A stretch of 64,000 nt of DNA from Eledone cirrhosa (Eukaryota). The stretch spans positions 4,402,001 through 4,466,000 of the forward strand of contig OZ024759.1 of NCBI GenBank assembly GCA_964016885.1. Direction: 5' to 3'. The translations under genes and the position numbers were made by a program. This document shows, one piece after another, positions 1,270-60,940 of this stretch (position 1 is the stretch's first letter; the number at the start of each line of letters is the position of its first letter). The notes beneath the pieces were generated by a model, which had not been told where the DNA came from, ran no database searches, and worked only from the letters and a program-made list of their open reading frames with translations.

Positions 1270-1965
1270 TCAGCTCGGTTTAAATGAGATTATACGAAAA
1301 GGGAAACATCATTATCATCATTGTCGTTTAACGTCTATCTTCCACGCGAGCATGGGTTTACAATTATAAACAATTATACAAGTACACATACACAGAAGAA
1401 GTTCTTTTCAAAGGGGAAGCAACTCACACTGTAATTTACGAAGCCTTAGTCACTTCTAACCGACCAAATCAATAACAAGAGGTTAAATCCTATGTAGGTA
1501 TGGCGGAGGGCCAGTTTAAAGAATGCTTCCTGAATCAACTGTCGACATTCAGACACCTGGACAAACGATCGTCCACGAAGCTCACAAGTCACATGTGGTC
1601 TCTCAAGACGCAGGCGTGGATTACTCCATTCAATGGAAAGTTATTACTGAGTCTATACGGAAATGGGATTCGTCTTGTGGGCTGTGCATTGAAGAAAGAA
1701 TCAATATCCTGAGTAGTTACGTAATAGTGCTTGTCTAAATTCAAGAATTTAAAAGCTCCAAACTGACTACTGGATGTAACTTCTAGACCGAATACCATAA
1801 ATAACTTATTGTATTCTGAGCTTTCGCTGTTGCCTCTAATGTGAGTTGCCTTCCCTTTGAGAAGAACTTCTGCACATGTGTATTTGTATAATTGTCTCCC
1901 TTTCCATATAATCTCATTTGAACTGAGCTAATGATCCAACTTAGGTGAAACAAATTGTTTTCGGA
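1270..1965 (+). mobile_element. Degenerate Penelope-like element: GIY-YIG endonuclease remnant flanked by inverted terminal segments
   Basis: Frameshifted translation VIYEALVTS..KSYVGMAEGQFKE..STKLTSHMWSLK..DYSIQWKVI..CGLCIEE resembles the C-terminal GIY-YIG domain of PLEs. 1270-1430 is inverted relative to 1840-1930. A degenerate hammerhead lies at 1922-1964. Confidence 0.7.
1922..1964 (+). ncRNA. Degenerate type-I hammerhead ribozyme (family 3)
   Basis: ctgag-CTAATGA-tccaacttaggt-GAAA-caaattg-TT-ttcgg. The core has G>A (CTAATGA instead of CTGATGA). The inverted partial copy near 1268-1290 reads ccgagCTGATGg on the minus strand. Confidence 0.5.
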
Positions 1966-34698: not shown

Positions 34699-34742
<44 letters not shown>

Positions 34743-34745
<3 letters not shown>

Positions 34746-35220
34746 GGAAAAGATGAAACGATATTTCATTTCCCACTCTTAGTACGGCTGTTACTTAAAT
34801 ATAAGTATGTACACGTACACACATATATGCATACCGACGTACAGTAGTATGTATATATATATATACATACATGCACACATATATATATGCACATATGGAT
34901 TCACCGAATATTTATTATAATGCTCGGTGTGTTTGTAAACAAACATCCCGTATTAAGCCGTAGTGTCTAGCAACCACCGTTGCTCGTTTGTAGCCCGTTA
35001 ATATGCATAAGGTAAGTATATACGTTCAACAATCTGGCAGGAAGGTATACGTTGCTGACGATAGCTAACAAGCTTGAAACTAGTACAGCATTCCTTTGTC
35101 AGTGTTGAACAAACGAGCAACGGTGGTTGCTAGACACTACGGCTTAATACGGGATGTTTGTTTACAAACATTATAATAAATATTATAATAAATATTCGGT
35201 GAATCCATACGTGCATATAT
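34743..35220. mobile_element. Penelope-like repeat (family 1 relative) with internal inversion and hammerhead
   Basis: Homologous to 43578-43990. Arms ~34880-34990 and ~35108-35220 are inverted. Confidence 0.7.
35049..35091 (+). ncRNA. Minimal type-I hammerhead ribozyme (family 1)
   Basis: gttg-CTGACGA-t agct aaca agct t-GAAA-ctag-TA-cagc: intact core, stem II, palindromic minimal stem III, GUA cleavage triplet and short stem I. Confidence 0.75.
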
Positions 35221-35779
35221 ATATTAATCTGTTATTTTAATAAATATTTTCTCTACAGTTCTTATATATTTGATATATATTTATCCTTATTGAGCCCTCT
35301 TTGGATTTTAGTCTTCAATTTTATTATTATTACTATATATATATATATATATACACATATAATTGTGTATTCACACATTATCTTAGTAATGATATAATAA
35401 TTTTAGTAAATTGTTCAAAATTCTTCATTAACCATTTTGGTAGAAACCCAGCCAAAATAGGTTCTCGTTATATGGAAATGGTTCCTATCTAAATTAAAGT
35501 CTTCCAACGAAATTCTATATAACAACCATATGTTATGTTACTATGTTAGTAATTAACTAACAATTGTGATAAATAGCCCAAATTATTCATAATTAATTGA
35601 AATACGAGGTTCATAATTATAATAAAATCTTCGAACAGGCTACGAAGCCGGTAAACCTTAAAGGTACGCAACACACACATCGCTATAGCGTTTCACCAGC
35701 CAATTCATTCCTCAATCATTACATAGATGTGTGTGTATGTAATAAATATTTTGTATTGTGTCTATTTATGAATATGTAT

Positions 35780-39534: not shown

Positions 39535-39627
39535 GTAATTCCGTCGGAAAAGTGCAGGAAAAAAGAGTGCTCTATGTAGGCAACAGAGCTTAATTATTAT
39601 TATGTAATAAACAACATAAGGCAATTA

Positions 39628-39687
39628 TTCCATTTACCAGTGGTTTCTTAAAAGCAAAAGGTTTTGCTTTCAATCCTCAGAATGAAA
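39628..39687 (-). ncRNA. Type-I hammerhead ribozyme (family 2)
   Basis: Reverse complement of 42770-42829: ttcatt-CTGAGGA-long hairpin-GAAA-ccactgg-TA-aatgga. Confidence 0.8.
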
Positions 39688-39832
39688 AAATCCTGGTTTG
39701 TTTATTGAATTTGGATTTTAAAAAACAAAAATGCAAACTATATGAAAGTGAGGCTGGAGAAGGGAGAAGGAAAGGAAAAATAAAATAAAACTACACATGC
39801 AAACACACACACAAAAACACAAAAGCATACAT

Positions 39833-39899
<67 letters not shown>

Positions 39900-40147
39900 C
39901 ACATATATATAAAAAAAAACATTGACACTCCTATGATAAATCAACCGCCTTGAAATCCTTCCCTGCTCTTTACTTCTGCTACGGTTTTTATTTTGCTGAT
40001 TCTACGTTCTGTACTCTTGTATATTTACTTATTTTTTTCTCCCTTACCTCCCCTTATATTTTACCTTTTCTTATGCCCCCCCCCCATATATTCTGTTTGC
40101 CTTGCCCTTCACATACCTATGTGTATGTGTATGTATATTTGTGTGTA

Positions 40148-40216
<69 letters not shown>

Positions 40217-40293
40217 GTGTGTGTATGTGTATGTGTGTATATATATGTATATATTTGTGTGTGTGTATGTATATGTGGATAAACCAGGGTTTT

Positions 40294-40353
40294 TTTCATT
40301 CTGAAGATTGAAGGAAAAATTTTTTGCTTTTAAGAAACCACTGGTGAATGGAA
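40294..40353 (+). ncRNA. Hammerhead ribozyme family 2, probably inactive copy
   Basis: CTGAAGA..GAAA ccactgg TG aatgg. The cleavage triplet is GUG (not NUH) and stem II has mismatches. Confidence 0.6.
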
Positions 40354-40514
40354 TAATTGCCTTATGTTGCTTTATTACTTTACTACTATATATACGTATA
40401 TGTAAGGTTCATATGAATTATCTAAGACTGAGTCTTACACATACACACATGTATGTGTGTGTGTGTGTATGTGTATGCATGTGTATATATATGTATGTAT
40501 ATGTATGTATGTAT

Positions 40515-41523
40515 GTAGCAGCAAGTGCCCACAAAATACTAGCTCTTTCAATTGCGCAGAGGGTTCTATAGAAATAGTGGACAGCTTCCGTTACCTGGGC
40601 GATAAAATCAGCAGTGGGGGAGGGTGCTCTGAAAGTACTGTAGCTAGAGTCAGAACTGGTTGGAAAAAGTTCAGAGAGCTTATACCACTATTAGCTGCTA
40701 AAGGGTTCTCCCTAAAAATGAAAGGCAGGTTGTACGATGCCTGCATACGAACAGCAATGTTGCATGGTAGTGAGACCTGGGCATTGTGTGCAGAGGATAT
40801 ACGCAGACTAGAGAGGAACGAAGCTTGCATGCTCCGCTGGATGTGTAACAGTAATATACGTGAACGGCAAAGCATAAACGAACTAAGGAAAAAATTAGAG
40901 ATAAGAGGGATCAGATGTTGTTTACTCGAGAGAAGGCTGCGTTGGTATGGACACGTGATGCGCATGAAAGTCGATAGCTGTATTACAAAGTGCAGGGCAA
41001 TAAAGATAGACGGTAGCCACGGAATAGGCAGACCTAGAAAAACATGGGATGAGCTGATAAACTCCGACCTCACACACTTACACCTCTCCAAGACAATGTC
41101 ACTGGACCGTGACCTTTGGCGGTACTCAGTAACAGAGAAGACCCGCCTTGCCAGTAGGCATATCTAACAAAATACACCCCTCCCGCCGCCACCCCCACCC
41201 CATCCACACCACCCCGTTCTATGTAAAGTTATGTTGGTGCCGCGCCATCCAGGCCGAAACAAATGAGATCGTGTAGGTGTCACGACAAAAAAAACACACA
41301 GTCCACGCTGTAATGTGGCCGTGTAGGCAACACGGTAAAAACCTCCCAGACCCACACTGTAAATGTGGTTGGTGTTAGGAAGGGCATCCAACTGTAGAAA
41401 ACCTGCCAGACAGTCCTATGCGAGCAAGACAATCACTCTTGCCTCAAGTGGGACTACCCCCGTCCAAACCCATGCAAGCGTGGAACACGGACGTTAAACG
41501 TTGATGATGATGATGATGATGAT
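40515..41523 (+). mobile_element. 5'-truncated RTE LINE (C-terminal ORF, 3'UTR and (GAT)n tail)
   Basis: EIVDSFRYLG..LHGSETW..RRLRWYGHVMR..GRPRKTW motifs; stop at 41167; ends in gatgatgat repeats. Confidence 0.92.
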
Positions 41524-41731
41524 ATATATGTGTATATATATATATGTATATATATATGTGTGTATATGTATGCGTGTGTATGTATATATGTATGTGTGTC
41601 TGTGTTTGTGTTTGTATTTGGTTGTGCGTGTTTATGATATGTACGTATTTGTATGTGTATAATTGTTTAGCTATGTATCTATATGTGTGTGTATGTATAC
41701 GTATGTGTGTGTGTGTGCGTTTATATTTATG

Positions 41732-41782
<51 letters not shown>

Positions 41783-41783
<1 letters not shown>

Positions 41784-42003
41784 ACTCAGCTGTAGAAATG
41801 AGATGATAGGGACTGGGGTCCATATCATTCCACTGCAAAGTGGTCATGGAGGTGCCATGGCAAAAAAGCACCCAGCACTCACTGTAAATGAGGTTGGTGT
41901 TAGGAAGGGCATCCAGCTGTAGAAATCAAGCCAGAATCAGTTCCCGTCCCACCCTTGCAAGCAGGGAAAAGCGGACGTAAAATGAAATGATGATGATGAT
42001 GAT
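41783..42003 (+). mobile_element. SINE family A, 5'-truncated
   Basis: Near-identical to 2133-2340; ends in (gat)n. Confidence 0.85.
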
Positions 42004-42435
42004 ATATATATATATGTGTGTGTGTATATAATTACATATACATATGTGTGTGTATATATTGTATACGTGTGCGTATTTGTGCATGTATGTGCATGTATGT
42101 GTTTATGTATTTGTATATGTATATTTATGTGTGAGAGTGTGTGTATGTGTTTACGATTTCGTACGTATGTATACGTGCATTTGTGTGTATTACTTACCAC
42201 GCGTGTCTGTCCAGTTAGCTGCCTTATGTAATGGTGTCAAAAAATTTTTTTAATATATATATATATTTTTTCTTATATTTATTTGCGTGTGTGAATATGT
42301 AGAGGAGTGCATTTATGTATGTGTATGTACGTATGTATATATGTATGATTGTGTGAATGTATGTATGTATATATGTGTGTGTGTATGGCTATGTTTGTGT
42401 ATGTGTATGCTTGTACACACATATATATATATGTA

Positions 42436-42484
<49 letters not shown>

Positions 42485-42591
42485 ATATGTGTGTGTGTAT
42501 GTGTATGTATGCGTGTATGTATGTGTATATGTGTATGTATGTGCATGTGTATATTTGTGTATGTATATATATATGTGTATATGTATATATG

Positions 42592-42622
<31 letters not shown>

Positions 42623-42769
42623 ATGTATGCTTTTGTGTTTTTTTGTGTGTGTGTTTGCATGTGTAGTTTTATTTTATTTTTCCTTTCCTTCTTCCTTCTC
42701 GAGCCTCACTTTCATATAGATTGCATTTTTGTTTTTTAAAATCCAAATTCAATAAACAAACCAGGATTT

Positions 42770-42829
42770 TTTCATTCTGAGGATTGAAAGCAAAACCTTT
42801 TGCTTTTAAGAAACCACTGGTAAATGGAA
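42770..42829 (+). ncRNA. Type-I hammerhead ribozyme (family 2)
   Basis: Stem I ttcatt/aatgga, core CTGAGGA, 11-bp stem II ttgaaagcaaa/tttgcttttaa, GAAA, stem III cc..gg, GUA cleavage site. Confidence 0.82.
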
Positions 42830-43142
42830 TAATTGCCTTATCTTGTTTATTACATAATAATATTTTACATGGTAGACATTATTTGAATTTTGAAAATGTG
42901 AGACCAGAGAAATTGCTTCATGTGACACTGTAAGAAAACATTAAAAAATGAAATGTATATCTTCTTCTTTATCATTAAGTATGTCAGCAGCAGCAGCACC
43001 ACACACACACACACATATATATATACAGAGAGAGAGAGAGAGAAGAGAGAGAGTAGTTAATAATAAATACAAAGACCAAAATCTAGAGAGGGCTCAATAA
43101 GATAAGAGTTTTATGTATATATATATATATACATATATATGT

Positions 43143-43470
43143 ATCATCATCATCATTTTACGTCCACTTTTCCCTGCTTGCGAGGGTGGGACGGAAACTG
43201 ATTCTGGTTTGATTTCTACAGCTGGATGCCCTTCCTACCACCAACCTTATTTACAGTGAGTGCTGGGTGCTTTTTTGCTGTGGCACCTCCACGACCACTT
43301 TGCAGTGGAATGATAGAGGCCCAAGTCCCTATCATCTCATTTCTACAGCTGAGTAAACTGGAGCAATGTGAAATAAAGTGTCTTGCTCAAGGAAACAACA
43401 CATCACCCGGTTTGAGAATTGAACTCACAACCTTTCGATTGCAAGGCCAATGCTCTAACCACTAAGCCAT
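43143..43470 (-). mobile_element. SINE family A, full length
   Basis: Reverse complement of 2010-2340 with a (gat)n tail. Confidence 0.85.
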
Positions 43471-43577
43471 AGAGAGAGAGAGAAGTGAGAGAGTAGTTAA
43501 TAATAAATAGAAACACCAAAATCTGGAGAGGGCTCAATAAGATAAGAGTTATATATATATATATGTATATATATATA

Positions 43578-43695
43578 TAAGTTGAAAAAAATGAAAACGA
43601 AATTTCATTTCTCACTCTTAGTATGGCACTTACTTAAATGTAAGTATGTATGTATACGTACATACATATATGTATACGGACGTACAGTAGCATGC

Positions 43696-43728
<33 letters not shown>

Positions 43729-43990
43729 TACAGGTACACATACATATATGCACGCATCAGTTTAGCGGACGCTTATTATAACGCCGCTTTGTTCGTTTGT
43801 CAACAAACTGAACAGCCTGAATTTATGCCATACGGTGTTAAGGTAACCACGTCACCTTTTTGTTCAACACTGACACAGGAACGATGTACTAGTTTCAAGC
43901 TTGTTAGCTATCATCAGCACCGTTTACCTATCTGCCAGATAGTTGAACGTTCGAAAGTATATTCTTTCCTTATCAAAATTAACGGCTGAG
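43578..43990 (-). mobile_element. Penelope-like non-autonomous repeat (family 1)
   Basis: Homologous to 673-985 and 34743-35220; contains an internal (TA)n tract and a hammerhead. Confidence 0.7.
43880..43924 (-). ncRNA. Minimal type-I hammerhead ribozyme (family 1)
   Basis: Minus strand reads aacggtg-CTGATGA-t agct aaca agct t-GAAA-ctag-TA-catcgtt, with a 7-bp stem I, intact core and GUA site. Confidence 0.85.
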
Positions 43991-44500
43991 CAGCCTAATT
44001 TGCATATTGAGTGAGTTAAATCGGTCAGGCATCAAATTTGTGTTCTTTTATTTTGTTTTTGATATGCTACCAAGGATTGGGGGTTAGAGTTGTGTTTGCA
44101 TTCCTGTCCAGTTGTTATATGGTTTGGATGGCTATTCTAGTAGGCAGATATGAAGCAGGAGGTGCTATTGTTGCTGACATACTAGGGATGGTAAGTAGGT
44201 TAAGGTATCAAATTACCAGAGGGGTCAGTCATCACCCCACCCCCCGTTCATATATGTTAAAGAATTTGTTCGAATAATCTACTTATTTTTTTGTTTATTT
44301 GAACTTTGTTTATTTGTTTGAACTACATAGCTATATATCCAGGCTGTGTATTATTAGAGAAGGTGATTCTTGTGTAACTATGTAAGGATGCATTAAATGT
44401 ATAGATTTAGTCATTATGTTCAGCTCTAGGTGGAAGTTAGCATGGAATGTGTTAACTATCTAATCTAAGGAAAGTTTTAGATATTTTATGCATACAAGTA

Positions 44501-44708
44501 TTAACTCTTTAGCATTTACATTACTCTGTAATGTATTTTCTCTGTAAAGTCTTTACCTCACATAATATCAAATCAACAAGATTTTGATATTATTTATTTT
44601 GAGAACAATACCTTAACATAAGTATGAGCAGCCAGTTACGGCTGGTTTGAACAGAAAAAGGTGAGAGAATTCTGGCCGGATATGGCCGGTTTAAATGCTA
44701 AAGGTTAA
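44501..44708. mobile_element. piggyBac-like MITE (unexpanded copy)
   Basis: ttaa-ctctttagcattta ... taaatgctaaaagg-ttaa: terminal inverted repeats inside TTAA. Confidence 0.75.
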
Positions 44709-45906: not shown

Positions 45907-46041
45907 CCCTAGAAGCAGGGGCAGTCTTATGTGGTTTGATGTAAAAAAAATTAAGGACTCATTGATTCTCAACATTTAAACAGTGTTGTTGTATGAAGGG
46001 ATGGTTGTGTAAACAACGCTATCTGGTGGTAGGTTACTAAC

Positions 46042-46179
46042 CTGTCTGGCAGTTACTTCCCTTGTAACCAACTGCACATCCTCCACTTGAACATATCCCT
46101 GACACTATATTACATTTACTGTTGTCTGCACAGTGGCACATATACTTGCAGTTAGGACCAAATGAACCAGATGCACACA
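46042..46179 (-). CDS. EGF-like (MEGF/laminin-EGF type) exon 4
   Basis: 138 nt, phase 1-1, ag/gttagt. Encodes VCASGSFGPNCKYMCHCADNSKCNIVSGICSSGGCAVGYKGSNCQT. Confidence 0.92.
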
Positions 46180-46266
46180 CTGCAATGGAATAAAGCAACA
46201 ACAACAGAAAACATGAGGATGAAGAAGAAAAAGAGACAATTATACAGACAGATGCACATGCATAGT

Positions 46267-46515
46267 GGAGGTGTGTGGCCTAGTGGTAAGGGTGTTGGAC
46301 TTGCAATCATAATGTCATGGGTTCGATTCCTGGGCTGAGTTGTGCGTTGTATTCTTGAGCAAAACACTTCATTTCACGCTGCTCCAGTATACTCAGCTGA
46401 AAACGAGTACCAGCAATAGCTGGGGTTTTGACCCCACGATGGATTGGCGTCCTGTCCAGGGAGGAGTCTTGTACTCTCAGTCATTTCACACCATAAAAAT
46501 GGGATAAGCACCTAC
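46267..46515 (+). mobile_element. tRNA-derived SINE
   Basis: TGGCCTAGTGG and GGTTCGATTCC boxes; a related inverted copy lies at ~52460-52705. Confidence 0.75.
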
Positions 46516-46570
46516 TATTGTCTTGACACAATATATTATGTTACAAAAAAAGCTATACTACACCACTTAC

Positions 46571-46708
46571 CTGTCTGACAGTTGCTACCTTCATAACCAG
46601 CAGCACATCCTCCACTTGAACACACACCTGTCTGTTTGTTACACCTGCTGTTGTCAGCACAGGGGCATGTGTTGCCACAGTTTGGTCCAAATTTCCCCTC
46701 TGGACATT
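46571..46708 (-). CDS. EGF-like exon 3
   Basis: 138 nt, phase 1-1, ag/gtaagt. Encodes KCPEGKFGPNCGNTCPCADNSRCNKQTGVCSSGGCAAGYEGSNCQT. Confidence 0.92.
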
Positions 46709-46820
46709 CTACAATGAAAGATCATGAGAAAACCTCTGCTCTTTTATCTCACTAAACATTTGTAAAAAAAATGAGGTTCAACTGAGTAAGAATACAAAGG
46801 ATTAATAGGATTAATCAACC

Positions 46821-47040
46821 CTTACAATACTAAGGACCTTTGTTAAGTTATGTTCCAAATACCATCTTAACCGTTTTGATACCAAACTGCCAGATGTGGA
46901 CCTTGTTCTTACAATACTAACAACCTTTGTTAAGTTATGTTCCAAATACCATCTTAACCCTTTTGATACCAAACTGCCAGATGTGGACCTTGTTCTTACA
47001 ATACTAACAACCTTTGTTAAGTTATGTTCCAAGCACCATC
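46821..47040. repeat. 87-bp tandem repeat, ~2.5 copies
   Basis: cttacaatactaa..ttgttaagttatgttcc recurs at ~46821, 46908 and 46995. Confidence 0.85.
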
Positions 47041-47414
47041 TGAGACCACTCTTGGCAGGTCTGTTGGATGTTGGCTTACCTGGGGCTAAACAACATCAAC
47101 AATACCTACTACAATATGCAATACCACCACCACTACCACTATCACCAGCAGCAGCAGCACCACCAACACCACCACCACACCAACAACAACAAAACCAGCA
47201 TCCTCCTCCTCACCACCACCACAACTACCTCCACTCCACCACCACCATCACCACCTACACTCCACTCCCACTATAACCACGACAGCCACCTACACTCCAC
47301 CAACACCACCACCACCACCACCACCACCATCACCACCACCACCACCATCATCATCATCACCATCACCACCACCACCACCACCACCAGTACCACCATCATC
47401 ATCACCACCACCAT

Positions 47415-48730
47415 CTGGGAGATCCAAAATACTGTTGTGGTCCCATTCCATTACTTCACCAATCTTGTAGACCCTAAATATTGTAATGGTCACTGTCCTT
47501 TCTCTTCCACCAACCTGAGAGACCCTAAATACTGTTGTGGTCCATGTCCCTTCTCTTCCACCAATCTGGGAGTCCCTAAATACTGTCATGGTTCCTGTTC
47601 CTCCCTCCAGTAATCTTGGAGACCCTAAATACTGTTGTAGTACCTTCCCATTCCTTCCACTAATTTTGGAGACCCTAAATATTGCAATGGTTACTGTCCC
47701 TTCCTTCCTTCAATCTAGGGGACCCTAAATACTGTTCTGGTCCCTGTTCCTTCTCTTCCACCAATCAGTGAGTCCCTAAATACTGTCATGGTTCCTGTCC
47801 CTTACTTCTCTTCCACCAATCAGTGAGTCCCTTAATACTGCCGTAGTCCCTGTCTCTTCTCTTCCACCAATCAGTGAGTCCCTTAATACTGTTGTGGACC
47901 CTGTCTCTTCTCTTCCACCAATCAGTGAGTCTCTTAATACTGTTGTGGTCCCTGTCTCTTCTCTTCCACCAATCAGTGAGTCCCTAAATACTGTCGTGGT
48001 CCCTGTCTCTTCTCTTCCACCAATCAGTGAGTCTCTTAATACTGTTGTGGTCCCTGTCTCTTCTCTTCCACCAATCAGTGAGCCCCTAAATACTGCCGTA
48101 GTCCCTGTCTCTTCTCTTCCACCAATCAGTGAGTCCCTTAATACTGTCGTGGTCCCTGTCTCTTCTCTTCCACCAATCAGTGAGTCCCTTAATACTGTTG
48201 TGGTCCCTGTCGCTTCTCTTCCACCAATCAGTGAGTCCCTAAATACTATCATGGTCCCTGTCTCTTCTCTTCCACCAATCAGTGAGTCTCTTAATATTGT
48301 CGTGGTCCCTGTCTCTTCTCTTCCACCAATCAGTGAGTCCCTAAATACTGTTGTGGTCCCTGTCTCTTCTCTTCCACCAATCAGTGAGTCCCTAAATACT
48401 GTTGTGGTCCCTGTCTCTTCTCTTCCACCAATCAGTGAGTCCCTTAATACTGTCGTGGTCCATGTCTCTTCTCTTCCACCAATCAGTGAGTCCCTTAATA
48501 CTGTTGTGGTCCCTGTCTCTTCTCTTCCACCAATCAGTGAGTCCCTAAATACTATCATGGTCCCTGTCTCTTCTCTTCCACCAATCAGTGAGTCCCTAAA
48601 TACTGTCGTGGTCCCTGTCTCTTCTCTTCCACCAATCAGTGAGTCCCTAAATACTGTCGTGGTCCCTGTCTCTTCTCTTCCACCAATCAGTGAGTCCCTA
48701 AATACTGTCGTGGTCCCTGTCTCTTCCCTC
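47415..48730. repeat. 51-bp minisatellite, ~26 copies, intronic
   Basis: Unit gtccctgtctcttctcttccaccaatcagtgagtccctaaatactgtcgtg; degenerate on the left, homogeneous on the right. Confidence 0.95.
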
Positions 48731-48758
48731 TCTAAAGGGTAAACAGATAAAAACTTAC

Positions 48759-48896
48759 TTGACTGGCAGCTGTGTCCCCTGTAACCAGGTGAGCACCTTC
48801 CATTGATGCAGATACCATTGTCAGAGTAACATTTGCCATTATTCAGACAGTGGCACTTCTTCACACAGTTGACACCAAACATGCCATGGGCACATC
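48759..48896 (-). CDS. EGF-like exon 2
   Basis: 138 nt, phase 1-1, tcag/gtaagt. Encodes GCAHGMFGVNCVKKCHCLNNGKCYSDNGICINGRCSPGYRGHSCQS. Confidence 0.92.
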
Positions 48897-49002
48897 CTGA
48901 GAAAACAACTTCAATATGTAATTACTGTATTTCCTGACGCCGAAGACACTTCGTCCTCGAGGACACACCCTAATTCTGACAACCAAAAATTTGAAAAAAA
49001 AT

Positions 49003-49396
49003 AATTGTTTCTACTTTTGGCACAAGGCCAGCAATTATCCCAATGTATTACTGGTACTTTATTTTATCGACCCCGTAAGGATGAATGGCAAAGTTAACCT
49101 CGGCGGGATTTGAACTCAGTCCATAAAGGGACGTAACTCTTTGCTGCAAAGCATGGCGTCAGACCGATACTGCCAATCCACCGCTCTTTGAATTTGAAGA
49201 AAAATAATTGTTTCTACTATTGGCACAAGGCCAGCAATCACCCAGTACATTACTGGTACTTTATTTTATCGACTCCGTAAAGATGAAAGGCAAAGTTAAC
49301 CTTGGCAGGATTTGAACTCAGAATGGCAAGTGCTGTAACTCTATGCGTCAAAGCATGGCGTCCGACCCTCTACCGATACTGCCAATTCACCGCCCT
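49003..49396 (-). mobile_element. Two tandem SINE family B copies
   Basis: 49003-49185 and 49204-49396 are both homologous to 50779-51003 in reverse. Confidence 0.75.
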
Positions 49397-50447
49397 TTGA
49401 AGAAAAATAATAAACAACTTTCGGCCTCCAGGATGCATGGTAGATTTTTGAGACTTATTTTAGTAAAAGTAGCGTCTTTGACGCCGGGAAATACGGTGAG
49501 TTTAATTAATTCAAATTTCTGAGTTGTTATCTTTCATCCTTTGAGTGTATCCCATTTACAATAGTAACTCTATAACCCTGCATGTTGTAGAAAGAGCCTA
49601 AAATAGTTTGGCATCAAGAAGGGCATCCAGCAGCAAAATAATGCCTCAATACTATATATCATCATCATCATTGGATGCGCAATGTCAATGTGCATGAATG
49701 AGCAAGCATAGTTGTGTTTGCATTCCTGTCCAGTTGTTATATGGTTTGGATGGCTATTCTAGTAGGCAGATATGAAGCAGGAGGTGCTATTGTTGCTGAC
49801 ATACTAGGGATGGTAAGTAGGTTAAGGTATCAAATTACCAGAGGGGTAAGTCATCACCCCACCCCCCGTTCATATATGTTAAAGAATTTGTTCGAATAAT
49901 CTACTTATTTTTTTGTTTATTTGAACTTTGTTTATTTGTTTGAACTACATAGCTATATATCCAGGCTGTGTATTATTAGAGAAGGTGATTCTTGTGTAAC
50001 TATGTAAGGATGCATTAAATGTATAGATTTAGTCATTATGTTCAGCTCTAGGTGGAAGTTAGCATGGAACGTGTTAACTATCTAATCTAAGGAAAGTTTT
50101 AGATATTTTATGCATACAAGTATTAACTCTTTAGCATTTACATTACTCTGTAATGTATTTTCTCTGTAAAGTCTTTACCTCACATAATAATCTCACATAA
50201 TATCAAATCCACAAGATTTTGATATTATTTATTTTGAGAACAATACCTTAACAAAAGTATGAGCAGCCAGTTACGGCTGGTTTGAACAGAAAAAGCACCA
50301 CCTACACTCCACTCCCACTATAACCATGACAGCCACCTCCACTCCACCACCACCTACACTCCACTCCCACTATAACCACGACAGCCACCAACACTCCACT
50401 CCCACTATAACCATGACAACCACCTACACTCCACCACCACCACTCAC

Positions 50448-50582
50448 CTTTACAAGTGTTATTCACATCAATATATCCATCTTTACATCCAGTCACACAT
50501 TTGCCAGTCAATTGATCACATGTCTTTCTGCAGTTGTTGCACTCTTCTTTACAATTTCTTCCATAGAATCCAGGGAGACATT
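50448..50582 (-). CDS. EGF-like exon 1
   Basis: 135 nt, phase 1-1, ctag/gtgagt. Encodes CLPGFYGRNCKEECNNCRKTCDQLTGKCVTGCKDGYIDVNNTCK. Confidence 0.92.
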
Positions 50583-55717: not shown

Positions 55718-58700
55718 CTACAGGCTGATATAGAGAGAAGACCCATTCACTCTGGCCATTCTCCCTACTTTCACCCACCTTTCATAAAACTTGCTGGGGT
55801 AGAGCACCTCTCTCTACATTCTGATCCTTCTTTTAAAATGGTATTTGAAAAAGAGGACCAGTTGTTGGCCGGAGAGAAAGGTGTCTGACCTCAGCCCTTT
55901 CAGCCTCGTCCACCATACAACTTCTTTAGCCATGGCTATCACACAGAGAAAAACCGCCTCTCCTTCGTTTTTGAAAGGGGGAGGCGCTTTGATCGTGACA
56001 ATGGACTCGGTGGTCAACCGGATTGGTTCCACCCTCAACAGTAGTCGTTCCACATAGCCCCACAGGTCAGCAATGCCTGGGCAGTGTACGAATGCGTGCG
56101 CAACGGTTTCGTCATCATGCACGCATCTCGGACAGATCTTATTCAAAGGATCTCTACCTAGGCTCCCATGCCTGTGGAGCTTGTCTCGAACGGGTAGAGC
56201 CCCTCGGTAGCACTGCCAAGCCAGGGACTTTTGGAAGTTGTCCATCGGTCCAGGGCCAAACGTCCTACCGAACAGACTGGCCAGTTCATCTTCCTCTATG
56301 CCTAGAGCTTCTCCGAGAGCATCGTCGCACCTGCTGCGTACCAACCCTCTATAGAATGTCGAGGTGGAGTCTCCACTGATTGCCGGGTCCGCTTTCCAGA
56401 GGGCCGTGAGCGCCTGGGCACATTCAATGTGCCAGTCGCCCACTTTTCTCGGTCTTTGCTTGACCCAGGATTGCAGCTCGGTGAGCGAGACGAGTCTGGG
56501 AAAGGCTCGCCTCACAAACGGGGCCCACACCGGTTGACCGGTGAGGAATACCTGGAGGTGCCGTAGCCTTAATGCGTATTTACGCATCTGTAGCCACGGC
56601 ATCCCCAGCCCTCCTTTCGAAGGGTGTTGACAGCAGATGGATCTCCTCACCAAAGGGGTCCGCTTGTTCCAAAGAAATTGGAACAGCGCGCACTCCATTT
56701 TGGCGAGTCTTTTCACTGGGCAAGGCACGACGGTCAAGCGGTAGTAGATGACGGATGCTATATAAGTATTCGCCACCTCCGCTCGACCTTTCAGGGATAG
56801 TTTGCACTGGGCCCACTTCTGGGTGAGTGCAAACAGCCTGGCCGTTACCTCGTTCCAGTTTTTCTCCACCTGGAGGTCTGGTCCGAACCAGACCCCAAGC
56901 AGCTTCACCGGGCCCTCCGTCCAGCGTCCGAGGACGTCGTTGGAGGGCATCGGTTTGCCTCTCCATGTTCCGAGTTGCAAACCGACGGACTTGTCCCGGT
57001 TCAGCTTGGCTCCTGTAAACCTTTCATATTCCTCCAGTAAGGTGCCGATCTCACCGATTTGCGAGGTTTTCGACACCATTACTGTCACGTCATCGGCGTA
57101 GGCCGACGCCGCTTTCTGCAATCCCGGTTCCAAAGGGATGCCCTGCAACCGCTCCAACTTCCGCAGTAGTGGCTCAAGAGCCAGCACATACAGTAGGGAG
57201 GAGAGAGGGTATCCCTGTTGGATGGATCGCATGATTTGGAATGGCTCCGAGAGGTGGCCGTTCACCTTGACCCTTGAGCAGACGTTGCTGCTGTGCATCG
57301 CAGCAATCCAACCCCTGAAAACGGGTCCGAAGCCTGCCGCCGCGAGCACCGCATCCAGGTAACGATGGTCAACCCTATCGAAAGCTTTAGATTGATCCAA
57401 GTTGATCAGGGCCCCACCCCAAAGCCGGTTTCATTCCCTACCCTCTCTATGATGTATCGCATAAGGTGGAGATTGTCGTGAATGGACCTGGACGGGATTG
57501 TGCATGTCTGCGCTTCTCCCACCAGGTTTCCAACGACAAGCGCCAACCTCTTCGCTAACACCTTGGCCAAAATCTTTAACTCTGTATTTAGCAGAGTTAT
57601 GGGCCTGAAGTTATTTATGTCATCCCCCTTGTTCTCATCCTTCCTCACCAGCGTAACTACGCCCTTGGTCACAGAACTGGGAATTCTCCCGTTCTGCTGC
57701 CAGTTGCAGTAGACAGCTTCGAAGATATCGGAGAACAAGTCCGGCATCGCTACATATAGCTCGTATGGTAGACCATCGAGACCCGGGGATTTGCGTTTGC
57801 TGCATTGGCTCAGCGCCGCCCCTATCTCAGCAGCTGAAATCGTCCTTTCGCAGGACTTCGCCTCCGCGTCCGAGAGGCGCGGCAGACCGTCGAGGTATGG
57901 ATTGAAATCCATAGTCTCACCCGGCGCGCCGCCCCTCTCGAACAGTCATGCAAAGTGCCACTGAAAGGCCGCACACATCTGCCCAGGTTCAAGGATCACA
58001 CGCCCATCCTGGTCCTTCAAAGACCGAATCGTGGACTTGTTACCACTTTTTGCCTCTGTCACTCGGGCCCAGCTCACAGCTTTGGCTCCCTCATTACCCA
58101 GAGCACGTATTTTACTCCTGACAACGCAGCCTTCATGCTTCACCTCAAAGAACTGGTCTAAGGCCATTCTTGATGCCAGCACGCCGGCTACATTGCCACT
58201 CCTAATCGCCTCATCTACTCTATCTACTAATTCCCTTTCCGTCTTGTTCCTATCCCTTGCTAATTCCTGACTAAAACCTATCGATTCTATTCTAATTGCT
58301 CTCTTAAGAGAGATTCACCACCTGTTGTTGACAATTGCCCCTGTCAAACTCTGCTTAACTAACGTGCTAATCCGTTTACTGTAAGCTTTGCTTCTCGGTA
58401 AGGACAAGTTCAGCTTCCAGTAACCGGGTCCCTGTCTATGGGTTCTATCAAGGTTGGCTATGCAGGTCACTAACTTGTGATCCGAATAGTCAACCATGAA
58501 CATTTTTGGACAGCTAAATGTGTCCCTATCCTTCTCTCTAACTAGGACCCTATCTAGGTACGACCTAGATGTTCCACTGCGATTGGTCCACGTCCATAGT
58601 GGTACAGTCGGAAAATCTAGTCGATATCTATCGGCCAGGTCAAATCGGCCGATTAACCTTTTGAGGCTTTTACACCCCCCTCTATTGGCACATGCCCCTA

Positions 58701-59162
58701 CATAGTCCCAACGTGCATCCAGGATACCATTCCAGTCCCCCACTAAAAGCAAGGAGCGGGACGTTCCCAGAAAAGTTTCCAGACGTTGGAAGTATTCCGG
58801 CCGCGCTGCCCAAAAAGGGGCGTACACAGCTATTAGTCTAAGGGCTCCACTTTCACTACTGCCGACGTCTAAAACCACCAGTCGACCCTCCGGGTCCAGG
58901 TGCACCTTCTGTATGGCGAGGCCCAGGTGTTTTCGCAGCAGAACAACAACTCCACCCCCACCCCCCCACCCGGTTGACAGAGAGATGCGAAGATCTCAAA
59001 GTCGTCGAAGAGGGGCGCCAGTTGGTGCTCGCTGCTGATCCTGGACTCGCAAATAGCCATTACATCCATTCTATGCGACCTGAGATCGTTTAAAAGTTTG
59101 CCTTGTTTCCAAGACAGTCCCAGGCCGCGTACATTCAGACACCCAACTCTTATATCAGCCAT
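55718..59162 (-). pseudogene. Tx1/L1 ORF2 (endonuclease-reverse transcriptase), disrupted
   Basis: Motifs CLNVRGL, AVYAP, GDWN, YLDR, SDHK, KSPGLDG, FRPITLLN, DQSKAFDRV, QG.PLS, YADD and CPRC..ETVAHAFVHC. Frameshifts at ~58950 and ~57410; in-frame stops at ~58315, ~57946 and ~55814. Confidence 0.9.
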
Positions 59163-59183
59163 GTTGGTTAAAAGAGGAAGGAC

Positions 59184-60895
59184 CTACCTGTTCGGCTCCT
59201 GAGGAGCAGGTTGCACAATATCCATGGGCGTATTGGAGGGGTTGTTTGGTGGGGTGTTGTTCTGTGGTGGAGTGGGGGTGTTTGGTGAGGTGTGGGTGGG
59301 GAAACGTTTCAAGAGGACGCGGTTATAGGGTCGAGTACATGTTTTCCCCACGTCCTCAGGAAAGTTCTCTCTTAGTTTTGCATAGGTGTCCATTGGGAGT
59401 CTTATCATTTTTAAATGCGGTTTGTTGGCCGCGCTTGCAAAGAATTGCCCTTCAGTTTCCACCGAAGGGTCTTTGTGTATTGTTTTTACTAGTTCTTTGT
59501 TATTTGTGTTAATGTATGTATACTGTTTTATTTGTGTTGTGTTTGTTTGTTGTTCTTGTGTGTGCTTACGTTTTGTTGTATGTGTTATGTTTTGGGGTGG
59601 GGCGGATTTTGTTTGTTCTGTTTGTTTTGTTTTTGTTGGTGGTTGTGTGTTTGTTTCGTTTATGTTCGAGTGGTGCTTTCTTTTTTTCCTTTTTACAGGT
59701 TGGAAGGGTTCCTCTTCTTCGTCACTAGGTGCCGTTTCAGCTGGGTCCTCGTCCGTGTTGTCGGGTAGTGGTGTATTTTGGGGTTTTGTTGTATTTGTGT
59801 GTGTTTTGGGAGTTGTTTTGGGTGGGGCCGTGTCTTGTGTTATTTTTCCGTGTTGTTTTTGTTGTTGTTGTGGTGGTGGCGGTGGTGGTGTGTGGGGTGT
59901 AGGCAAAAGAGCCTTTTTTTTGTCAATTGAGGACAAGCAGCCCTTAGATGACCCCTGCTTGAACAGTAGTAACATATGGGCCTCCTACCCTCGGCTGAAA
60001 TGTATATAAATGTTTCTCCATCGAGGGACACCCTCTGTGGTATTCTAGCTATTCGTTCTGATCTCATTTGGACCAGAACCTCCACGCTCAAACCGCCGAA
60101 AACGTCTGTGGTGACTTCTCCTACTGAGAGGATTCCGTCCTCGTCTTCTAAAAATCCTGTTAGTACCCAGGAAATGCATGCATTTGGCCGGATTCCGGAG
60201 ACCCTTATCTTCTGCGTTCTTTTCCCTAAATATGTGGGGAAAAATGTATGTAGCTTGGAAACAATTGGCGCCACAGAGTATTTCCTGGCCGTCAATTGAT
60301 CCTTCATTAGGACCGTTATATTCCCATAGAGTGGCCCTTTTTGTATGAACGATATATCACTCCACACATTTTTTAGGACCAGCTCAATCTCTTTTTGGGA
60401 TAATTGAGCTGGTTTCCTTGTTATGTTGGAAATTGTTCTGAAAGATATCGTTCTTAGCGTCGTGTCTCTTTTGATTTCTTGTGGGGAGGTGATTGTGAAG
60501 TCTCCTCCTTCTTTGAAAGTTACATACTGTTTCGCTTCCTTCATCTTTTCTCTCAGAGTTGTAATGTCCAGTTGCTTGCAGGTTTGTGTTTTCCGGACCG
60601 CCTGTGCAAAGGAGGCACCAGTAGTGGGTTCGCTTTGTTTGGTGTTATCGTTATTTTTTCCTTGGTTGGTGTTGTGACTATTGCTGTTATTGTCGTTGTT
60701 GTTTTTGTCTGCGTTTATGTGACTTTCTGGGTTTTCACCCATTTTTACAAATTTTTCTTTTAATTCCGTGTTCCATGTTTCTTTTGCAGAAGTGAGGAGG
60801 GAAGACTTAGAGCCTTGTGGTTCTAGCTTCTCTGTATCACCTTTCTTAGGGGGCGTGGCTTTCACGTTAGGATGAGATGTGAAAATTCCGTCCAT
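59184..60895 (-). pseudogene. Tx1/L1 ORF1 (gag-like zinc-knuckle protein) with one frameshift
   Basis: Starts MDGIFTSH; contains SFAQAV and CYYCSSRGHLRAAC; frameshift in an A-run at ~59915; Pro/Thr-rich tail; stop ~21 nt before the ORF2 ATG. Confidence 0.82.
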
Positions 60896-60940
60896 TTCTA
60901 TTAGTTTGCACACGTCAACACACGTCTCTCGTATACGAGA

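Follow-up and report, generated by a model that had tools for sequence, protein, structure and literature searches.

We analysed a 64,000-nt window of the Eledone cirrhosa genome (assembly GCA_964016885.1, contig OZ024759.1, positions 4,402,001 to 4,466,000 of the forward strand; coordinates below are those of the window) that holds three copies, A, B and C, of a short repeat with a type I hammerhead ribozyme motif. We consider it likely that these copies are the 5'-truncated 3' ends of one abundant Penelope-like element (PLE) family, each inserted separately in a tract of TA/TG microsatellite. Judged by its motif architecture, the family probably belongs to the Hydra clade or derives from it. 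The family is a new one; such hammerhead-ended PLEs are already known. Most likely the microsatellite is where the copies landed, and a TG-rich leader may travel with a longer form. The same tract also collected a long interspersed nuclear element (LINE) and a short one (SINE), both separate from A, B and C. Published work is cited below for the passages and supplementary tables that we compared.

Hammerhead motifs and copies at the locus

The features of the locus are as follows.

39592..39834 (-): copy A, a 243-nt 3'-terminal piece with TG-rich leader, U-rich stretch, hammerhead and an end of ~30 nt; 97% alike to C over 245 nt
39628..39687 (-): copy A's hammerhead motif, with a GUA triplet; the cut is predicted after 39635
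39835..40280 (no strand): (TA)/(TG) tracts with a spacer of 203 nt at 39912-40114, separating the head-to-head copies A and B
40281..40378 (+): copy B, 98 nt, 90% alike to C, with microsatellite on both sides; spans the closed domain predicted around the hammerhead
40294..40353 (+): copy B's decayed hammerhead motif, with a GUG triplet, a broken helix II and a fold of -4.2 kcal/mol
40520..41523 (+): LINE 3' fragment that carries a (GAT)n tail, a separate insertion by its open frame, homologues and junctions
41783..42002 (+): 5'-truncated SINE, a separate insertion, with its 3' end in common with the LINE
42621..42865 (+): copy C, a 245-nt 3'-terminal piece of the family
42751..42851 (+): predicted closed domain, in which the hammerhead and an irregular helix I extension end in a 9-bp outer helix (prediction with the hammerhead enforced)
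42770..42829 (+): copy C's hammerhead motif, with a GUA triplet; the cut is predicted between 42822 and 42823

Scanning both strands with a descriptor yielded these three motifs of the family and no more. The 60-nt motifs of A and C are identical letter for letter and have the 11-bp helix II that the original prediction had described. They consist of a 7-bp helix I, the core CUGAGGA, helix II with U10.1-A11.1 as the closing pair at its base, GAAA, helix III (ACCA-C-UGGU) and the GUA triplet, in agreement with the type I core rule (a core of CUGANGA, GAAA and NUH flanked by three helices, of which helix I is the open one). B was rightly predicted to be a decayed GUG copy, and it additionally has an A-G mismatch that breaks helix II; its computed hammerhead fold energy compares with -11.1 kcal/mol for A and C. 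With G at position 17, a base disfavoured there in hammerheads, B departs from the core rule. H17 is part of the published minimal-hammerhead consensus (PMC4209133).

As a control for chance matches, three descriptors were run on the window, where they gave 4, 3 and 2 matches (2 for the strictest), and on 150 resampled windows that keep local dinucleotide content, where they gave none; the descriptors exclude GUG, and hence B is uncounted. The Rfam hammerhead models matched nothing window-wide (E<=1) nor on 42690-42900 (E<=10), and the window-wide scan also missed the hammerheads of another family in the window, here called family 1. With Rfam silent on the motif, it is the descriptor, together with comparison to published motifs, that underlies the hammerhead call. 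What Rfam did match in the region were microsatellites, hit by microRNA models and in every case under the gathering score. The fold of the isolated 60-mer is unremarkable in stability (z -1.3). BLAST found no similarity between the A/B/C family and family 1, and the proposed distinction between the two is supported.

The original prediction had further described 39590-39900 as an inverted copy of ~42440-42860, within a single unit of mostly microsatellite and no open reading frame. The inverted match holds for 39592-39834 against 42621-42865 (245 nt, 97%) and extends further, to 39927/42530, through microsatellite only. At 42701 and 42842 A keeps the majority letter of the family and C has a private one. 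Microsatellite and low-complexity tracts make up at most 1,261 of the 3,274 nt of the unit (39%), and the LINE and SINE together account for 1,224 nt (37%) of 39592-42865, so that part of the description did not hold. The LINE fragment sits in an open frame of 253 codons, 40406-41167. It has 82 homologues, the best at 65% identity; RVT_1 was matched by 4 of the 6 homologues scanned, and Pfam returned nothing on the interior open frame. We take this LINE to be RTE-like. The SINE is 94-97% alike to window copies at 2133-2335 and 43153-43356 and 80% alike to the LINE stretch 41308-41410, and a longer SINE copy in the window opens with a tRNA-like head at 2017-2080. A full SINE is also flanked by a 112-nt direct repeat (43031-43142 and 43471-43582, 92%), which is long for a target duplication.

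The spacer at 39912-40114 has no second match within the window. A search of the 70 nt beyond either end of the A to C interval found no target-site duplication of at least 7 nt; the longest common word is 6 nt and lies partly inside A. The intact motifs of A and C stand on opposite strands, A and B are head to head, and the same-strand pair B and C is spaced 2,476 nt apart with B decayed. Together with the separate LINE and SINE and the missing target duplication, this layout speaks against one retrozyme-like unit spanning 39590-42860. The prediction had left a choice between a retrozyme and a derivative of a Penelope terminal repeat; a Penelope-like terminal derivative is the part of it that we retain.

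Two side observations concern the copies themselves. The right flank of C (42860-42975) is itself a repeat, represented in sequencing run X1 by one contig at depth 664 with 0 substitutions over 84 nt; elsewhere it has a different upstream neighbour, and the sequence that precedes it in X1 is not in the window. In copy A, position 39756 (-), equivalent to 42701 in C and ~70 nt upstream of the hammerhead, carries the most pyrimidine-rich of the 6,446 YAG sites in the window (24 of 25). C lost the site by a private change, and 1,646 of 1,654 reads retain it. Going by its sequence, it could act as a splice acceptor, like that of the intron in Penelope terminal repeats.

Abundance and ends of the family

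The element was present in 8 of 11 listed sequencing runs, from 4 studies, one possibly the source of the window. Four of the runs were aligned to 42630-42975 (X7 and X8, with small shares, were left out), with 42630-42693 masked as repeats, which places the leader outside the comparison. The motif recurs, as the original prediction supposed: 1,578 contigs of X1, 3,737 restriction-site-associated DNA (RAD) reads of X9, 3 contigs of X5 and 27 contigs of X6 aligned to the copy C region, and 823 of the 1,578 X1 contigs were at least 95% alike to C. Depth in X9 exceeded 1,000 across the motif and was 0-1 on the right flank, in RAD cover that is patchy; summed contig depth was not taken as copy number.

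Depth climbs towards the 3' end and falls away sharply at ~42857, which marks the 3' end of the family. Beyond this end 42 X1 contigs continue into (TA)n. The 5' edges are heterogeneous, with a TA-rich loose end before 42733 in 178 X9 reads. Insertion into (TA)n would fit B and the 42 X1 contigs, and is not directly seen at the 3' ends of A and C. The 5' and 3' junctions of the B type recur as loose ends in X6, the 3' one in X1 as well. Among the five listed joints, four link opposite strands and none returns along the same strand; one opposite-strand joint just upstream of helix I (42760/42767) was seen in both X1 and X9, and some of the RAD joints are possibly library chimeras. Piles of X9 read ends at 42746, 42749 and 42834 were considered as ribozyme cuts or element ends and rejected: they coincide with AATT sites and were taken as library cuts, and loose ends and joints at these piles were discounted. 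Loose ends at 42801 and 42810 (161 X9 reads and 13 X1 contigs) suggest sibling families with the same helix III and 3' end and another helix II. Pattern scans of metagenome contigs, viral contigs and prokaryote genomes gave 0 matches, as expected for an animal repeat.

Variation across copies

The variant pattern lends moderate support to selection on the hammerhead fold. Forty of the 49 variant rows were visible and nine hidden. Twelve visible rows fall inside the motif, at 11 positions, and none of them in the 11 core positions or in helix III. Assuming that no hidden row lies there, the probability of sparing the 19 protected positions is P=0.009. N7 is variable in 39-46% and loop II in up to 40%. 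Pairing is retained in 5 of the 8 stem rows, and both common ones (42807 and 42827, at 25-40%) turn a G.U pair into a Watson-Crick pair. U10.1 varies to C or A, up to 9% each. No two-sided compensatory change occurs among the visible rows.

Predicted folding

The computed energy of helix III is +0.4 kcal/mol as a hairpin and -8.2 kcal/mol as a self-duplex between two copies. A helix III that is unstable alone and stable as a self-duplex points to a dimer. In the closed domain, shuffled flanks matched or beat the real ones in 17 of 1,000 trials for C and 27 of 1,000 for A. An RNA spanning both A and C is predicted to form an A-C duplex of ~-378 kcal/mol, in which either ribozyme would be buried.

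Comparison with published elements

The closest published motifs are those of the Hydra-clade PLEs described by Craig et al. 2021 (PMC8557442). By our own count, helix III is of the 4+1+4 form in 17 of 26 Hydra rows of their File S2, and 15 of 26 have U.U or U.C at the base of helix II; the 4+1+4 helix III as a signature of the clade is our reading of that table and not the authors' definition. Their File S1 lists (TA)n as the target of 26 of 27 Hydra-clade families, and an inverted 5'-truncated copy is recorded for one listed family. Like our family, Hydra-1_Obim has a type I hammerhead near its 3' end, with 30 nt after helix I (~28 here), and a 9-nt helix III with the arms ACCA/UGGU. Hydra-clade elements also resemble the family in having no G10.1-C11.1 pair and, as far as B and the 42 X1 contigs go, in adjoining (TA)n at their ends. 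Helix II of Hydra-1_Obim has 7 bp, compared with 11 bp here, and our family, unlike the Hydra-clade motifs, runs from A9 straight into helix II, without an additional base, unless U42784 is counted as one. It also looks far more abundant than Hydra-1_Obim, which was described from 4 terminating copies.

The minimal PLE hammerheads of Cervera and De la Pena 2014 (PMC4209133) share the type I form, a long helix II, a palindromic helix III suited to dimers, and a U-rich 5' and AU-rich 3' flank, and they too are mostly solo or in opposite-strand pairs. That paper describes solo and opposite-strand minimal hammerheads as coming from truncated elements, with weak dimer activity. Its palindromic helix III is found again here in the computed energies. 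The minimal hammerheads conserve G10.1-C11.1 with an extra base after A9, whereas our family has U-A; its helix III is longer than their usual form, and its helix I has 7 bp against 4-5. Inverted truncated copies are typical of PLEs in general (PMC8557442, PMC3846280), and the family shows such traits in its 5'-truncated and inverted copies: A and B are head to head, four joints link opposite strands, and there are several 5' edges.

In Octopus vulgaris recently active Penelope families are reported, with ribozymes unmentioned in the passages compared (PMC13282606), and 235 Rfam hammerhead hits are reported in the giant squid (PMC6962438). A literature search, with subscription papers and Repbase outside its scope, returned no title or abstract start describing the A/B/C family. 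Exact 12-letter motifs of the family had no match in the readable supplements of PMC8557442, PMC4209133 (all but 1 file) and PMC13282606, where line breaks could hide a match. The supplements of PMC7229834 and 10.64898/2026.07.22.740005 lie outside this comparison, and either could list the family.

A broken relic of a GIY-YIG-type endonuclease, Hydra-like in sequence, lies at 1398-1616 (+). A full HMMER scan gave 51 relatives; all 7 aligned relatives carry a linker of the CxCX5C type (one with an insertion), which is the Hydra form according to PMC8557442, and 1 of 19 relatives scanned has a sub-threshold GIY-YIG match. Nothing matched the relic in Pfam, in a word-index search or in Atlas. 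The relic shows only that Hydra-like elements exist in this genome.

Weighing the explanations

Several observations weigh against a separately inserted, Hydra-type Penelope-like family. Helices I and II and the 3' untranslated region (UTR) look different from those of Hydra-1_Obim when compared by eye, and loop II differs in sequence as well; the differences in helices I and II and the 3' UTR make this another family, and placement in the clade is by motif architecture only. [quoted passage not shown] The endonuclease relic adjoins family-1-type sequence and lies 38 kb from A, B and C. Copy A is followed at its 3' end by ~60 nt before (TA)n begins, which is not demonstrable as the 30-40 nt tail of a PLE, and the 3' end of C joins another repeat. 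A and C have one common 5' edge in TG-rich sequence, which would not be predicted by independent truncation. The variant evidence has its own weak points: 3 of the 8 stem rows disrupt a pair (two at 10.1, one beside loop II), the P value for the protected positions becomes 0.05 or 0.14 with one or two hidden rows among them, the core-only test gives P=0.085 and the stem-transition test P=0.16, and variants are inherited within subfamilies and so are not independent.

An unlikely variant of this explanation makes the family a Hydra-clade Penelope element's hammerhead SINE, free of coding sequence and far more strongly amplified than its autonomous partner. Jointly with that, and no more probable, the ~100-nt closed domain (the B type) and a 245-nt form with a TG/TA leader would be its two forms, it would both target and seed microsatellites, and the 5' edge at the outer helix would be a real RNA or complementary DNA end. 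B begins and ends near the edges of the closed domain.

We give a low probability to the idea that A to C is one Penelope-type insertion with one inverted and two direct terminal repeats, and with host DNA (microsatellite, LINE piece, SINE) that was taken up between B and C or came in afterwards. The inverted-direct-direct order is the Adineta layout, in which one inverted and two direct terminal repeats (pLTRs) carry an unrelated gene between them (Arkhipova et al. 2013, PMC3846280), and A and C are 97% alike with both ends in common. That likeness needs no common event, given that 823 of the 1,578 contigs match C at 95% or better. Copy A exceeds B in length, lies 446 nt away rather than adjacent, and B is 10% divergent; moreover, the interval lacks a target duplication, with only the 6-nt word partly inside A, and the upstream neighbour of the right-flank repeat in X1 is not in the window.

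Slightly less credible is a family of non-LTR (long terminal repeat) retrozymes, whose tandem units are freed as circular RNA by double self-cleavage and which would be represented here by dispersed monomers. Such retrozymes likewise have a type I hammerhead in a non-coding repeat, and they probably derived from Penelope-like ends (10.64898/2026.07.22.740005). The type I motif, low GC and the common part free of open reading frames would fit; monomers are frequent in some retrozyme families (10.64898/2026.07.22.740005), mussel retrozymes also do without the usual tertiary contacts, and an axolotl retrozyme motif is active with U.U at the base of helix II (PMC7229834). Published tandem units measure 170-400 nt (PMC7229834) or 51-972 bp (10.64898/2026.07.22.740005), compared with a B-C spacing of 2,476 nt. 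Unlike these, the window holds no head-to-tail array, the locus has no short tandem repeats and no tandem 170-400 nt units, the intact motifs stand on opposite strands, and 0 of the 5 listed joints is same-strand. Past the 3' end the loose ends read (TA)n and not the start of a next unit, in an alignment where 42630-42693 is masked.

Very improbably, A and C are the terminal inverted repeats of a DNA foldback element of the kind of a miniature inverted-repeat transposable element, with an incidental or dead hammerhead likeness: the 245-nt inverted arms, the unremarkable stability of the isolated 60-mer (z -1.3) and its lack of an Rfam score would suit this, and against it stand the 0 descriptor matches in 150 resampled windows, variation that spares the core, a fixed 3' end with heterogeneous 5' ends, no target duplication, and the close fit to published Hydra-clade motifs (PMC8557442). 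An LTR retrozyme (type III motif in direct LTRs, primer-binding site and polypurine tract (PBS/PPT), 4-bp duplication) does not agree with the type I motif, the inverted arms and the lack of a duplication.

Other features of the window

Family 1 hammerheads lie at 43876-43925 (-) and 35043-35095 (+), with a helix II of 4 bp under a U.U mismatch and a helix III that is a perfect 6-nt palindrome. Pieces related to this family, the fold-backs at ~660-1200 and 34740-35230, contain internal (TA)n. Four EGF-repeat exons of a host gene occupy 46028-50580 (-) and read towards the A/B/C locus; copy A would be sense to this gene, as would the family 1 motif at 43.9 kb, if both are inside its intron. No later EGF-repeat exon was found with one cysteine pattern and translation of ten regions, and the intronic position is thus hypothetical. 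A 27-kb satellite (6319-33329) comprises ~1,647 copies of a 17-bp unit. A nearly whole LINE at 55814-60900 (-), presumably L1/Tx1-like, has a zinc-knuckle first open reading frame (ORF1), an endonuclease and a reverse transcriptase in several frames and lies between two 72-bp minisatellite arrays. By eye, ~44080-44680 and 49710-50290 form a duplication of ~600 nt.

Proposed mechanism and meaning

For a Penelope-like family whose copies were inserted separately, known Penelope-like biology suggests that a reverse transcriptase/GIY-YIG protein of the family would nick (TA)n. The RNA would be copied from its 3' end by target priming, and early stops would leave pieces of ~100-245 nt with a terminal hammerhead. 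Some pieces would be left head to head, and several elements would cluster in one microsatellite tract. The hammerhead itself would trim tandem precursor RNA, mainly as a dimer. The copies A, B and C are likely inert: B has decayed, and by the folding model A would pair with C in any RNA spanning both.

The original prediction had also suggested that the family may carry microsatellites around the genome. By analogy with the Hydra clade, whose target is (TA)n, and with other copies that end in (TA)n on the 3' side, such carriage is probably secondary. The common 5' edge of A and C and the internal microsatellite of family 1 keep the cargo idea alive for the longer form.

Hammerheads at Penelope-like ends are well known, and one from an octopus Hydra-clade element is already tabulated, so the finding adds a family and not a principle. 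In the literature passages compared we found no assay of a Hydra-clade hammerhead motif. With its very abundant natural copies, an 11-bp helix II, a 4+1+4 helix III and no G10.1-C11.1 pair, the family would permit a clean monomer-versus-dimer test of this motif. If it is true that the short B type is an element of its own, a ribozyme retroelement would be linked to the microsatellite load of octopus-like genomes.

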